In this document: positions 29,401 to 32,400 of the stretch, piece by piece
How positions within the stretch are numbered: the first letter of the stretch is position 1
Layout: each line of letters opens with the position of its first letter
NCBI GenBank assembly: GCA_963828125.1
Contig: CAWHDP010000002.1
Span: 1,664,001 to 1,728,000 of the forward strand
DNA: 64,000 bases
Source of the DNA: an uncultured Chlamydiae bacterium
GTDB lineage: Bacteria; Chlamydiota; Chlamydiia; Chlamydiales; SM23-39
Direction: 5' to 3'
Made by a program: the position numbers

Positions 29401-32400
29401 ATCCTCCTCGCCTCAAAACTCGGCCTCCCCATCTCTACGACCCACGCCCTCATCGGCGCCGTCGTCGGCGTAGGCGTCGCTCGCGGCGTCAAGGCCATCA
29501 ACCTCCAAACAATCAAAGAGATCGCGATCTCCTGGATCGTGACCATCCCCCTCTGCGCCCTATTCAGTATTCTCGCCTTCTACTTTTTGAGCTGGGTGTT
29601 TGTCTTATAACTCAGCAAATGGGTTGCCTGCTTGTTCGAAACCGCCGCCCCGTTTCCGGTTGCGCAGTTCGGAGCGGATCGAAAACAGGAGGTCTTGGTC
29701 GAAGTCTTTCCTTTCAGCCCAGAGGAGATATTCGATGGGGATTTCGTCAAATTTTCGCCCTTTATGCTTCCCGAGCGGCATCGCTTTGAGCTTGATCGGT
29801 TTTTCAAGGGTTTTGAGGAGCTGTTCAGTAGTCTGATAGGTCTTGGCGAGGTATTTGAATACCTCGATGTTGACGACGACGTCGCTCATCGCGCGGTGGG
29901 CCCCTTCGGCCTCGATATTGAAATGTTGGCGGAGCCTCTCAAGGGAGTTGACAGGACTCTCGCCGTAGAGGCGGGCCATCCGGAGGGTGTCAATGAAGGG
30001 CTGCGTCTCGATATGGGTCGGAATTTGACATCTTTGAGCCTCTGCCGCAATCAGGGCGATATCGAAGCCGATCCCATGGCCGACGAGGATGTGTTTGTCG
30101 ATGATCTTCAGCACATGGGGAAGAATGTCGGCAGCTTTCGGCTTGCCTTGCAGCATCTCGCTCGAAATCTTGTGGATCTCTTGCGAGACCTGCGGAATCG
30201 GGCACTCGGGATCGACGAGCGATTCATACATCTGGAGTACTTGATTGAAGGTAAATCTAGCGACTGCAATCTCAATCATCCGGTCTTTTTTTGGATCGAG
30301 TCCCGTCGATTCGCAATCTAGGCAAACGAAAATATCTTGGTGAATCAATCCCATAAGATCTGTTGAATCCTCTTTTCTACGATGTGCTTGGATCCGTTAT
30401 TCTGGATCGAATAATGGATCGCATCGGGATATTTTTTTAATAGAGCGCTTTTTTCCGAACTAGAGAGTTTATCTGTTTTCGTGAAAATGAGCAAAATAGG
30501 AATTTGTTTGGCCTCTGCCCAGGCAGCCAAGGTCCGGTCCTCTTCGCTAAAATCTCTACGGCTGTCGACGAGGAGCAAAATAAGTCGGAGGGTAGGCCGC
30601 CCATTGATATAGGCGTCGATCGCATGCGACCATTTTTCTATCTCGCCGGGGGGCGCTTTCGCATAGCCGTAGCCAGGCAGATCGACGAGAAGGAATTGTT
30701 CATCGACGAGAAAGAAATTGAGCAGTTGCGTTTTCCCGGGAGTAGCCGACGTCTTCGCCATTTTCTTCTGGCCAAGGAGGTGGTTGATCAGGCTCGATTT
30801 GCCGACATTGGATCTGCCGACAAGGGCGATTTCAGGGAGAGGCTTGCCGCGAGGATCCTTGAGCGTCGGAAATTCTGTCAGGGTGGAGAGGAGAAAACGG
30901 GCTTTCATAGACTCACTACGGCGATCCGCCCTTCTTTTTCATACATCAAATCGATGTAGATCGTGCCGAGAGGCAATATTTTTTCAATCCGATCGGGCCA
31001 TTCGATGGCACAAATGCCGTTAAAGTTAAAATATTCATCAAACCCAAGACTTGTAAAATCGGAAACCGTTGCTAACCGGTATAAATCGAAGTGGGCGAGC
31101 CCGGGGTAGAGGTTGAGCAAAACAAAAGTCGGACTCTGGACAGGCTCAGAGAGGCCAAGCCCCAGAGCCAGCCCCTGCACAAAGGTGGTCTTCCCAGCGC
31201 CGAGATCCCCCGAAAGGGCCAATACCGCTCTCGCGGGCAACTCGCGGGCAAGCCTAGCCCCCAAGGCGAGGGTCTCCTCATGCGAGAAAAGGGGATATGT
31301 TCCTAGTCCGATTCGACCCATTTTTCTAGGTAGGGTCCGAATTCGGGATGCTGCACGAGGGCCTCGACAAATCCGGCAATTTTATCTTCGGTTAAATGCT
31401 TTTGGATAAATCCAAGAAAATGCTCTTCGATCTGAAATCGGTTTTGGTTTTGCACTTCGAGCAGCGTGAGCGGTTTTACATGATTCTTTTTGAAGTCGTC
31501 CATCACAGCCGCCTTGCTATTGAACAATTTGCCCGTAATCGCAGAAGAATAAACGACTTTCTTCATCGAAGCTTTCCTCTCGCTGATGTAATTCTTGATC
31601 ACATCGGGATCTTCGGAGACAAAAAATCTTTTCACAGGAAGGCCGCCGACCCGCTCTTTATTCTCAGGACACTTGGAGACCCAGTCGTAAATGGCGTCTT
31701 GCGGGTTGGGACAGGTATTGTCGCCAAACACTTTGCCAGTAAATGGGCAAATGTAAATTTTCCTCGTCTCTTCATTGACGCTTTGCTGGCCGAATTGAAT
31801 GGTGATCTCCGTCTCGCGCCAAAGCTTCCCCTGCGATTGAAGCTTCTCAATGACGTCCTCGATGCTCTGGTAAATCGTCTTATCGCGTGGAAAAAGAACC
31901 GGCTTAACCCGATATTTTTCCTCGACATACGCGAGATACACGGTGACTAAATCGGCCCCGCGGTTCTTTTTTAAAAATTTCAGTAACTCATTTTTCTGTT
32001 CCGCTGTGATGCTCAGAGCCGTCGCCATATTTTCCTCAAAAAATCTTAGACGTTTAGGATACTATAAGAGTCTATTATCATCAAGAGAAGCGTCTCTTCT
32101 TGATTTTGCAATAGAGCCGTGCTATAGTCTCCTCAAAAAAATCCCTGATGGAGGACTGGCGCTATGGGTAATCAACTTTTAGACAAAACCGTTCAAGATC
32201 CTAAAAAACAATTGGCCCTTCTTCTCAAGACCAGCCAGAAATCGCTCCATTTCGAAAAAATCGTCGTCAAGGGGTACGAAAAAGTGATCAAGGTGACCGA
32301 TAGCCAGGCGGGGCTGAGGGCGGTGATCGCGATCCATAATACGACCCTTGGGCCTGCCCTTGGCGGGATCCGGATCCAGCCCTATGCAAGTTTTGAAGAT

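Follow-up and report, generated by a model that had tools for sequence, protein, structure and literature searches.

DUF2709, a protein family of the Chlamydiota, heads an operon with tsaE, engB and an exonuclease gene and appears to descend from C2H2-type zinc fingers

Introduction

What might be the role of a protein that essentially all Chlamydiota encode and that, as far as was searched, occurs nowhere else? DUF2709 (CT538 in C. trachomatis, Cpn0658 in C. pneumoniae, Wcw_1706 in Waddlia) is among the few proteins that raise this question. Passages of a signature-protein screen (PMC1403754) describe CT538 as a 238-aa hypothetical protein with homologues in chlamydiae and no significant match elsewhere, and passages of a 2020 study (PMC7143554) state that the sequence of the Waddlia homologue offers no clue. 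The gene analysed here lies in a 64,000-nucleotide stretch from an uncultured Chlamydiae bacterium (the window), for which a preliminary description had proposed that DUF2709 is locked to TsaE, the ATPase of the t6A tRNA-modification machinery. Literature searches returned no paper on the family name DUF2709 and none on CT537 or CT536 with Chlamydia; for TsaE with Chlamydia, the titles and abstract openings held no link between TsaE and CT538. Relative to the available passages on CT538, Cpn0658 and Wcw_1706, both the zinc-finger ancestry and the link to a tsaE/engB/exonuclease operon described below are new. Should the protein prove essential as well as chlamydia-specific, it could serve as a marker and perhaps as a target for drugs.

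Results

DUF2709 is a conserved single-copy protein of the phylum

The DUF2709 gene (CT538/Wcw_1706 family) is an ORF of 241 aa at 31303..32028 on the reverse strand. Its product matches the Pfam family DUF2709 (PF10915) at E 1.1e-119 and 398.4 bits (cut-off 23) over nearly its full length, with protein residues 6-239 corresponding to profile positions 2-237; no other Pfam family, zinc-finger models included, matched the window protein at E<=0.01. CT538 has the same length as the protein of locus L022 (238 aa) and belongs to the same family. ORF calling and HMM matches bear out the identities that the preliminary description gave to this gene and to the neighbouring tsaE, and its claim that DUF2709 spans the phylum agrees with the detection of PF10915 in 199 of the 200 phylum members scored and in none of 14 control genomes. 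The gene is single copy in 199/200 genomes, those of 1.0-1.2 Mb among them. One genome (G156, completeness 95%) was missing both DUF2709 and TsaE, probably through an assembly gap, and was taken as uninformative.

Conservation of DUF2709 exceeds that of its operon neighbours across 30 loci. Its identity to the window protein ranges from 51 to 69%, compared to 35-53% for TsaE (loci L002-L031), as had been claimed before on fewer loci. Residues 88-126 reach a mean pairwise identity of 91% across families (19 genome-derived rows), while the corresponding value for TsaE is 47%. The motifs Y92-I-C-P-F-x-G-K-V and C120-x-E-N had been numbered correctly; their reported invariance holds among close and middle-distance relatives and breaks down in the family as a whole. 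With divergent members added, the alignment has 48 rows and strict invariance is limited to P95, N104 and I144; C94 and C120 are conserved at >=90%.

DUF2709 is the first gene of a compact operon

Three genes follow DUF2709 on the reverse strand. The first, tsaE (30905..31321), encodes the t6A ATPase of 138 aa and scores 128.4 bits against PF02367 (cut-off 26.6) and 115.5 bits against TIGR00150 (cut-off 60.1). It retains the Walker A motif GDLGAGKTT, as described previously, together with SPTF and HFDLYRL; residues G38, G43, K44, T45, S63, P64, H77, D79, Y81 and R82 are invariant in the TsaE alignment (22 rows). The second, engB/ysxC (30345..30908; TIGR03598, 189.6 bits, cut-off 124), encodes a 50S ribosome-biogenesis GTPase. 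The third (29605..30354) encodes a DEDDh exonuclease of the DnaQ/RNase T superfamily (PRK06310; NF004964, 373 bits, cut-off 236; PF00929, E 7.7e-32) with a C-terminal QSregVF_b domain (PF12843, E 1.3e-6). Divergent to the operon, on the forward strand, lie a Leu/Glu-type dehydrogenase gene identified by Pfam matches (32164-33330) and argS (33335-35065), an ORF with homologous arginyl-tRNA synthetases in loci L032 and L035. A promoter and terminator scan of 29300-32400 gave counts within the range of shuffled sequence and no site upstream of DUF2709 on its own strand.

The genes of the operon overlap throughout, by 19 nt for DUF2709/tsaE (31303..31321, reverse strand), 4 nt for tsaE/engB and 10 nt for engB/exonuclease. 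The tsaE start codon lies inside the K236-W237 codons of DUF2709: the A of its ATG is the third base of the K236 codon, and its T and G open the W237 codon. In loci L022, L026, L027 and L028 tsaE likewise starts with (A/G)TG-GGT at this conserved Trp. By a start-codon heuristic, tsaE begins within DUF2709 or at most 12 nt from its stop in 24/30 loci. As judged from sequence, this overlap makes translational coupling of the two genes likely.

The arrangement is retained widely. Among the 200 genomes scored, 118 were present in both lists of the best 150 places, for PF10915 and for TsaE, and in all of these 118 tsaE lies downstream of DUF2709 on the same contig and strand, in keeping with the order first proposed. 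The median gap between the two HMM matches is 28 nt, with 110 gaps of <=100 nt, seven of 101-400 nt and one of 1176 nt; in one genome two additional genes sit between DUF2709 and tsaE. The engB gene follows tsaE in 27/30 loci and the dnaQ-like gene is present in 29/30. In the f4 loci engB does not adjoin, yet the DUF2709-tsaE junction, the most stable one of the block, is kept in 3/3. All four genes remain together even in the most divergent lineage, where DUF2709 is only 26% identical. The conserved synteny block also takes in the dehydrogenase gene and argS (32164..35065), with the dehydrogenase gene upstream in 18/30 loci. Synteny is strong throughout this phylum, however, so that a shared operon may say little about function.

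The association with TsaE is tight and extends to other genes

The idea that DUF2709 is locked to TsaE stands as regards close same-strand adjacency. It does not stand as a TsaE-specific link, given that engB and the exonuclease gene are about as tightly tied to DUF2709 and that one genus lacks tsaE. TsaE was found in 197/200 scored genomes. In genus g33 (G036 and G043; 98% complete), the only genus found to lack it, tsaE was missing by family, protein and alignment searches in 2/2 genomes; the loss is clean, with DUF2709 followed directly by engB. Strict co-occurrence of the two families fails in these genomes, which carry an intact DUF2709 that is 65% identical to the window protein (59-69% in other families) and retain genes for TsaD and a TsaB-like protein. 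By these sequence comparisons DUF2709 of g33 is unrelaxed despite the loss of tsaE.

At least two DUF2709-TsaE fusion proteins (P0123 and P0195) were present among the 120 listed of 3147 matches, each on one short metagenomic contig of 1.6-1.8 kb. They may be frameshift errors, because a single indel would join the overlapping frames. A complex prediction for TsaE (A3) and DUF2709 (A2) gave a score of 0.00, a value that comes without controls and weighs neither way on binding. From gene order, a TsaE-specific subunit role cannot be told from a wider role in the operon. The remaining t6A genes named previously, for TsaD, a TsaB-like protein and Sua5/TsaC, were all found in the genome.

Three units of DUF2709 resemble C2H2-type zinc fingers

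The AlphaFold2 model of DUF2709 (mean pLDDT 86.6, pTM 0.62) contains three beta-beta-alpha units, and three such units were predicted again when the central part was folded alone. Unit 1 (residues 43-67; 31828..31902, reverse strand) is modelled with strands at 44-46 and 51-53 and a helix at 56-65. Unit 2 (residues 88-123; 31660..31767, reverse strand) is the ultra-conserved core TRKIYICPFTGKVFGDNTCPNPQDAIYDWVSKCPEN, with predicted strands at 91-93 and 100-102 and a helix at 109-119. Unit 3 (residues 158-183, VVYSSAITGKLFNSKAAVMDDFKKNH; 31480..31557, reverse strand) aligns to a C2H2 finger of the metagenomic protein P0194.

P0194 carries C2H2, C2HC and C2H2 ligands at precisely the positions of the three DUF2709 units. 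It matches the DUF2709 Pfam family with 33.6 bits (cut-off 23), its zf-C2H2 matches being sub-threshold, and hhalign pairs it with the DUF2709 family alignment across 130 columns (probability 96.9%, E 1.7e-10). Against this protein, unit 1 reads as a zinc-finger relic without ligands: it aligns with a C-x2-C...H...H finger, and its ligand-equivalent columns 46/49/62/67 most commonly hold F-D/E-x-G (258 rows). Unit 2 has the appearance of a rewired C2HC finger. Unit 3 aligns residue for residue with the P0194 finger FPCAQCNELFGSVEALLQHLVKDH; Ser/Thr stand in for Cys and Asp for His, so that of the C2H2 template H183 alone is retained; the P0194 finger itself scores 22.2 bits against zf-C2H2_4, under the cut-off of 27. 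When units 2 and 3 were compared as internal repeats, hhalign gave E 1.4e-4 at a probability of 52%. Sequence matches of P0194 in the PDB were C2H2 proteins in 5/5 cases, none of them significant (E 0.7-9). In the ESM Atlas its residues 20-190 fell with C2H2 clusters (0.93-0.94) but shared few features with them, which we treat as a lead only; the window protein had no usable match there outside its own family. P0194 is a singleton, as no relatives were found among proteins of 326-1040 aa, and the proteins P0140, P0157 and P0160 matched no zinc-finger family at E<=1.

Structural comparisons gave matches of the same kind at low scores. The fold matches included SERRATE (Z 4.3, rmsd 3.8, 53 residues), the ZAP1 finger pair (Z 4.0, rmsd 2.6, 54/64), ARS2 (Z 3.8) and Kaiso (Z 3.4), all below the level that the tool regards as meaningful. 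Foldseek against the PDB returned nothing at E<=0.001 for the whole model or its central part, and its PII-type rows (TM about 0.1) were taken as noise. The 50 rows listed per model by VIA-align held no t6A/KEOPS accessory subunit, U-box, RING domain or deaminase. In a PDB profile search with the DUF2709 family, a designed helical protein matched the C-terminal helices at E 8e-5 and was judged compositional, and otherwise only weak rubrerythrin and designed zinc-finger rows appeared. A U-box reading of the CPFTGKVF...W motif was dropped given the zinc-finger alignment.

By sequence alignment and model, DUF2709 appears to combine a helical domain with three beta-beta-alpha units that go back to C2H2-type zinc fingers, a description that is new here. 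The likeness to C2H2 and C2HC fingers (zf-C2H2 clan; ZAP1, 1zw8; SERRATE/ARS2, 3ax1/6f7j) lies in the predicted beta-beta-alpha units and in the (Y/F)-x-C-x2-C-x3-F...H spacing. While classical zinc fingers are strung independently, the DUF2709 units would be embedded in one globular protein of 240 residues with a helical clamp. The family would be a clear natural case of ligand loss and exchange within an almost frozen surrounding sequence. Ros/MucR-type prokaryotic zinc fingers have a single-finger DNA-binding domain, and some of their homologues fold without zinc. They offer an analogy only, as a bacterial C2H2-like family in which ligands are partly replaced and fold and function presumably kept; no DUF2709 search yielded a Ros/MucR sequence or fold match.

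Finger 2 occurs in several ligand states

The four canonical Cys/His ligands are not present in the window protein, whose finger 2 has C94, a non-canonical C106 and C120, with W116 at the His position. They are present in finger 2 of nine divergent chlamydial members, where all four ligands of a Cys-x2-Cys...His-x3-Cys pattern are invariant. Most members have Cys94, His or Cys106, Trp116 and Cys120. Of 237 rows of this C-T-W-C type, 202 have His at position 106, 34 have Cys and one has Asn; Cys106 is typical for the genus of the window. Locus L029 shows an intermediate four-ligand state (C94/H106/H116/C120), position 106 is occupied by Tyr in the f4 loci, and C94 or C120 is missing from a few members. 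The ligand set is not universal, and therefore metal binding cannot be essential everywhere. The rewired finger 2 of most chlamydiae may still hold a metal. The lineage of P0125, which has the Cys-x2-Cys form, was not among the 400 genomes searched (best match 53% identical), and a metagenome scan for its context found nothing. The finger-2 segment (residues 86-150) is acidic, with a pI of 5.0 that is atypical for a nucleic-acid-binding surface; the N-terminal helices (pI 9.2) and the unit-3 segment (pI 10.3) are basic.

Discussion

The explanation that we favour, with a probability of roughly 0.38, is that DUF2709 works inside the bacterium as a non-catalytic binding protein that serves to mature the translation apparatus. 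It draws on gene order and overlap, on presence across the phylum, on the ligand patterns and on homology to a protein whose three fingers are intact, all of which are established by observation; from these we infer the pathway, the nature of the partner and any binding of metal. The protein would be soluble, kept within the bacterium and devoid of catalytic activity, its three C2H2-descended beta-beta-alpha units clamped by a helical domain (N-terminal helices 9-38, C-terminal helices 202-239). In finger 2, the ancestral Cys-x2-Cys...His-x3-Cys set would have given way to Cys94, His/Cys106 and Cys120, with Trp116 in place of the lost His; in fingers 1 and 3 the zinc ligands would be gone, H183 aside. 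The near-invariant finger-2 surface (88-126) may bind a partner that is unchanged across the phylum. Its gene would head a closely packed operon, probably with translational coupling, in which tsaE, engB and the DnaQ/RNase T-type exonuclease gene follow. This company makes an adaptor or RNA-binding factor in tRNA or ribosome maturation the most likely role, and a fixed place at the head of the operon supplies concrete candidate partners. The rewired finger in turn offers concrete mutants (C94, H/C106, C120 and W116) and a test of metal content. Housekeeping traits argue for this explanation (single copy, a 91% core, operon overlaps, a block kept in the divergent lineage, retention without tsaE), while the weak zinc-finger fold matches (Z 3.4-4.3), the empty Foldseek result and the acidic finger-2 segment argue against it.

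A narrower explanation, that DUF2709 belongs to TsaB-TsaD-TsaE as an additional subunit or regulator peculiar to chlamydiae, for example one that presents tRNA or controls the TsaE ATPase cycle, is possible but doubtful. It gains from the directly downstream tsaE in 118/118 comparable genomes, from the tsaE start inside the conserved Trp237 codon, a feature that the window shares with loci of other families, from the stability of this junction in the f4 loci (3/3), from the fusions P0123 and P0195 and from the presence of TsaD, a TsaB-like protein and TsaC. Several observations count against it: engB and the exonuclease gene are linked nearly as constantly, two genes intervene between the pair in one genome, the fusions are two among 120 listed of 3147 matches on single 1.6-1.8 kb contigs, where one indel in the overlap would join the frames, and both g33 genomes keep a normally conserved DUF2709, TsaD and the TsaB-like protein without tsaE. 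KEOPS, the archaeal and eukaryotic counterpart of TsaBDE, has the accessory subunits Cgi121, Gon7 and Pcc1. Lineage-specific t6A accessory subunits exist in other domains, and DUF2709 is encoded, and probably co-translated, with a t6A component; it has no homology to any t6A component, and it persists without TsaE in one genus. In its boldest form, which we hold to be rather doubtful, DUF2709 would be a fourth, zinc-finger-derived t6A component co-translated with TsaE, recruiting or releasing tRNA or gating the TsaE ATPase cycle, a role comparable to that of Cgi121 and Gon7, which extend KEOPS. Its rewired Cys/His-or-Cys/Cys site might then complete the TsaD metal centre or sense it, and g33 would keep DUF2709 because it acts on TsaBD or tRNA directly.

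A host-directed alternative has been published for Wcw_1706, which would be a type III secreted mid-cycle effector; its eukaryote-like, C2H2-derived fingers could then act on some nucleic acid or protein that is conserved among hosts. Fingers of the C2H2 type are much more frequent in eukaryotes, and the top weak fold matches, SERRATE, ARS2 and ZAP1, are all eukaryotic. We take CT507, CT603, CT610 and CT707 to be cytoplasmic housekeeping proteins. According to passages of PMC7143554, Y. enterocolitica secreted full-length Wcw_1706 in dependence on its T3SS, and the protein was pulled down with a homologue of the CT274-like TPR chaperone, a class II chaperone, and was recovered in the perfringolysin-released host cytosol fraction; these results favour an effector and count against the intrabacterial role. 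The same fraction also contained CT507, CT603, CT610 and CT707, so leakage of abundant proteins is possible. Transcription peaked at the onset of replication, and the antibody signal co-localised with bacterial DNA in the inclusions, on the bacteria (PMC7143554, same passages). Both agree with the intrabacterial role, and the signal on the bacteria speaks against the effector. So does the reported failure of N-terminal regions of CT538 and Cpn0658 to drive type III secretion: the first ~40 residues of Cpn0658 did not do so in Shigella, as passages of PMC3931295 state, and two studies in Yersinia and Shigella systems are cited in the available parts of PMC7143554 as finding that CT538 and Cpn0658 are not substrates. 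A single copy in 199/200 genomes, a 91% core and coupling to housekeeping cistrons would be unusual for an effector, and the N-terminus lies within the folded helical domain of the model. We regard secretion as unlikely on this balance; if real, it would make DUF2709 a rare effector common to the whole phylum. The signal with bacterial DNA (PMC7143554, in part) could also suggest a DNA-binding, chlamydia-specific transcription or nucleoid factor. Other proteins once known as signature proteins have since been recognised as regulators: GrgA/CT504, from the same list (PMC1403754, in part), was later described as a transcriptional activator. Zinc-finger descent, the many weak winged-helix-type matches of the N- and C-terminal helices (Z 3.2-4.7), the basic N-terminal helices (pI 9.2) and unit-3 segment (pI 10.3) and a weak HARE-HTH match in P0194 (E 0.056) fit this function. 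It is nevertheless quite unlikely, since every fold match is below significance, the most conserved surface is acidic and any cytoplasmic protein in such small bacteria would co-localise with DNA.

A metal-dependent sensor or a factor delivering zinc or iron, for example to the metal site of TsaD, through a Cys/His-or-Cys/Cys site that has three ligands and leaves one position open, is highly improbable. DUF2709 has no homology to known metallochaperones, position 106 is Tyr in the f4 loci and some members are without C94 or C120. Speaking for it, CT538 is one of ten iron-responsive proteins, as the available passages of PMC7143554 cite from Dill et al. 2009. An exchange of His and Cys is rarely tolerated outside metal sites, and such an exchange is seen at position 106 (202 versus 34 rows), as is the intermediate four-ligand state of L029.

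DUF2709 and tsaE form a tightly coupled gene pair

The 241-aa DUF2709 protein (31303-32028; PF10915, E 1.1e-119) is encoded on the minus strand of the window, head to tail with tsaE (30905-31321; 138 aa; PF02367 128 bits, TIGR00150 115.5 bits), engB/ysxC (30345-30908; TIGR03598 189.6 bits) and a DEDDh exonuclease gene of the DnaQ/RNase T superfamily (PRK06310; 29605-30354; NF004964 373 bits) whose product ends in a QSregVF_b domain (PF12843). Neighbours in this row share 19, 4 and 10 nt, respectively, and a Leu/Glu-type dehydrogenase gene and argS lie divergently upstream of DUF2709. 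The A of the tsaE ATG is the last base of the Lys236 codon in DUF2709, and its TG opens the Trp237 codon. This start within the near-invariant Trp237 codon, read as (A/G)TG-GGT with a Met-Gly-Arg N-terminus of TsaE, occurs at 31303-31321 and in loci L022, L026, L027 and L028 from other families; conservation of the DUF2709 C-terminus may therefore stem in part from the overlapping start.

Family searches detected PF10915 in 199 of the 200 scored genomes of the phylum (113/114 genera; one further genome was left unscored) and in none of 14 control genomes, while TsaE was present in 197/200. Gene order was compared in the 118 genomes common to the best 150 places of PF10915 and the best 150 of TsaE. 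Every one of the 118 carries tsaE on the contig and strand of DUF2709, downstream of it, with a median of 28 nt between the two HMM matches (110 genomes have ≤100 nt, 7 have 101-400 nt and one has 1176 nt). Where a start could be estimated with a start-codon heuristic, tsaE overlapped the DUF2709 stop or began within 12 nt of it in 24/30 loci. Compared with the window, identity across loci L002-L031 is 51-69% for DUF2709 versus 35-53% for TsaE, and mean pairwise identity is 64% versus 47%. These results bear out the preliminary description, which had placed DUF2709 directly upstream of tsaE on one strand and judged it the better conserved protein; the pair is genuine, and its two genes are closely coupled.

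Only in G030 did an interruption of the pair exceed 400 nt in the 118-genome comparison. DUF2709 and tsaE are separated there (locus L034, contig C38, 3516-4658) by two ORFs, 216 and 163 aa long and paralogous to each other, which are closely spaced and run in the direction of their neighbours; neither was assigned a family.

Proteins combining both domains were also recovered: a search with P0123 gave two DUF2709 + TsaE proteins among the 120 listed of 3147 matches, P0123 itself (279 aa, N-terminally cut) and P0195 (381 aa, both parts full length), each from a single contig of 1.6-1.8 kb. We count them as weak support, because the frames overlap and one indel would join them. A different metagenomic protein, P0129 (449 aa), carries a DUF2709 fragment (profile positions 41-170) followed by a DUF7305-like C-terminal part; a chimera of the assembly or an uncommon domain recombination would account for it.

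The link is not clearly specific to TsaE

The 30 loci with the highest scores (L002-L031) over-represent some families. Of these, 27 have engB after tsaE, 29 contain a dnaQ-like gene and 18 have the dehydrogenase gene upstream. L022, L026 and L027 (family f4) lack an adjacent engB and have the order DUF2709-tsaE-dnaQ-like. The most divergent DUF2709 with genomic context, P0160 (26% identical), comes from a MAG labelled Chlamydiia and is followed by tsaE, engB, a dnaQ-like gene, pgk and an ATP/ADP translocase gene, with argS divergent on its other side. The same block around so distant a homologue, together with its constancy in L002-L031, argues that the entire block has been frozen since the early radiation of the group. 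DUF2709-tsaE is the most stable junction of this block, though not the unique one, and a link of DUF2709 specifically to TsaE is not clearly indicated.

Genus g33, of reduced chlamydiae (family f11; 1.2 Mb, 98% complete), provides a natural case within Chlamydiota of t6A machinery without TsaE, the gene having gone cleanly from between DUF2709 and engB. Neither of its two genomes yielded TsaE by Pfam family search or with the window's own TsaE protein at E≤1, and what a chlamydial TsaE alignment matched, in ORFs of 638-1873 aa, did not go beyond the P-loop (E≥0.002). In the first genome (L032, G036:C1, 5213-7308) 21 nt separate DUF2709 (5213-5929) from engB, behind which come the exonuclease gene and pgk, and the order in the second (L033, G043:C20) is alike. 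TsaD and a TsaB-like gene are kept in both, and Sua5/TsaC also in G036. DUF2709 of g33 is 65% identical to that of the window (other families 59-69%) with its core motif intact, and therefore does not depend on TsaE.

DUF2709 as a probable relic of three zinc fingers

The family is very tight in sequence searches (74 representatives at 50% clustering, 16 below E 1e-30). An AF2 model from a 48-row alignment (mean pLDDT 86.6, pTM 0.62) predicts three beta-beta-alpha units (unit 1, strands 44-46 and 51-53, helix 56-65; unit 2, strands 91-93 and 100-102, helix 109-119; unit 3, strand 155-162, helix 172-182), preceded by helices 9-21 and 27-38 and followed by helices 202-239. Units 2 and 3 align in register (hhalign E 1.4e-4, probability 52%) and units 1 and 3 weakly (E 1.2e-3, 20%); this internal-repeat comparison gave no alignment of units 1 and 2.

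P0194, a 594-aa metagenomic singleton, scores above the DUF2709 cut-off (33.6 bits versus 23) and matches the family profile over 130 columns (96.9% probability, E 1.7e-10). Its three units carry the ligands C-x2-C...H...H, C-x2-C...H-x4-C and C-x2-C...H-x4-H. The third finger reaches 22.2 bits against zf-C2H2_4, under the cut-off of 27; the five PDB sequence matches of P0194 are all C2H2 proteins, at non-significant E-values, and the Atlas look-alikes of P0194 are C2H2 clusters, which we treat as a lead only. Unit 3 of the window protein, Y160-S-S-x2-T-G-K-L-F-x5-V-x2-D-x4-H183, can be read on the C2H2 template, Ser/Thr occupying the Cys positions and Asp that of the first His.

Foldseek found nothing with the DUF2709 model. 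VIA-align placed C2H2 proteins on top for the central part, at Z-scores in the range that the tool calls uninformative (SERRATE 4.3; ZAP1 finger pair 4.0, rmsd 2.6, 54/64 residues; ARS2 3.8; Kaiso 3.4). Fold searches thus neither confirm nor contradict zinc-finger ancestry. We read DUF2709 as what is left of a protein with three zinc fingers, the middle one of which has been rewired and is nearly invariant; this structural result is firmer than the idea of a TsaBDE subunit.

The Cys motif of the preliminary description is this middle finger. Ligands were counted in 258 rows, a biased sample of top matches of two queries plus 50% representatives: 237 rows have C-T-W-C at columns 94/97/116/120 and 8 have C-C-H-C, and four further rows, the P0121 cluster, are C-P-F-C by eye. 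The four ligands do not vary among nine divergent C-C-H-C-type members, whose mean column identity is 47%. Position 106 is His (202 rows), Cys (34) or Asn (1) in the C-T-W-C class, Cys106 marking the window's own genus, and Asp or Tyr in the C-C-H-C class; locus L029 has C94/H106/H116/C120. The simplest path through these patterns is that Cys97 gave way to His106 as ligand, and His116 then to Trp, which would leave the rewired finger with Cys94, His/Cys106 and Cys120. In a quick tree with long branches, one C-C-H-C clade is deep and another nests in the clade of the window's family (SH-aLRT 100). The His/Cys interchange at 106 suggests that many lineages still bind a metal; Tyr106 in the f4 loci, and a few members without C94 or C120, indicate that retention is not universal. 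Whatever the metal status, residues 88-126 have a mean identity of 91% (minimum 67%; 19 genome-derived rows), which points to an invariant binding partner.

Possible functions of DUF2709

The most likely role, to which we give a probability of about 0.4, is that of a binding factor which stays inside the bacterium and takes part in the maturation of tRNA or ribosomes, the setting suggested by its operon. A dedicated subunit of the t6A machinery (TsaBDE), as first proposed, is a reasonable hypothesis that we regard as doubtful, the physical association being putative; one clear observation, DUF2709 without tsaE in g33, stands against strict dependence, whereas a role with TsaBD or tRNA may be compatible with these genomes. 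The literature passages and listings consulted on CT538 and on TsaE in Chlamydia mention neither a t6A link of the protein nor zinc fingers. Those on CT538 place it in a table of Chlamydiales signature proteins (PMC1403754) and, in a two-hybrid screen, outside the set of self-interacting small acidic proteins (PMC3576375).

A secreted effector appears unlikely. Work on the Waddlia homologue Wcw_1706 reports that Yersinia exported the full-length protein through its type III system, and that Wcw_1706 was found in the host-cytosol fraction, bound a CT274-like chaperone homologue and was transcribed with a peak at 8 h; according to two studies cited there, in Yersinia or Shigella systems, CT538 and its C. 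pneumoniae homologue Cpn0658 were not T3SS substrates (PMC7143554), and the first ~40 residues of Cpn0658 are described as driving no secretion in Shigella (PMC3931295). The Wcw_1706 antibody signal is also described as co-localising with bacterial DNA (PMC7143554), and the N- and C-terminal helices together gave many winged-helix-type rows in VIA-align (Z 3.2-4.7); we nevertheless hold a DNA-binding factor to be quite improbable, and a metal-handling role, given the lineages in which ligands are lost, very improbable indeed. The intrabacterial binding factor remains our preferred reading.

The PRK06310 exonuclease (29605-30354) could, from its RNase T/DnaQ superfamily membership, act on RNA rather than DNA, and L035 (7879-8601), which represents the most divergent lineage, encodes the same QSregVF_b-bearing architecture. 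Elsewhere in the window's genome (2.37 Mb, two contigs), a second, weaker Sua5/YciO/YrdC-family gene lies at C2:670005-670508 (E 2.9e-11), the main Sua5/TsaC being at C2:375249-375776. Within the window, a 370-aa plus-strand ORF without a Pfam match (35443-36555) lies in a segment whose G+C content is markedly low (0.35-0.43 against ~0.5 around it), and may be a foreign or lineage-specific gene.
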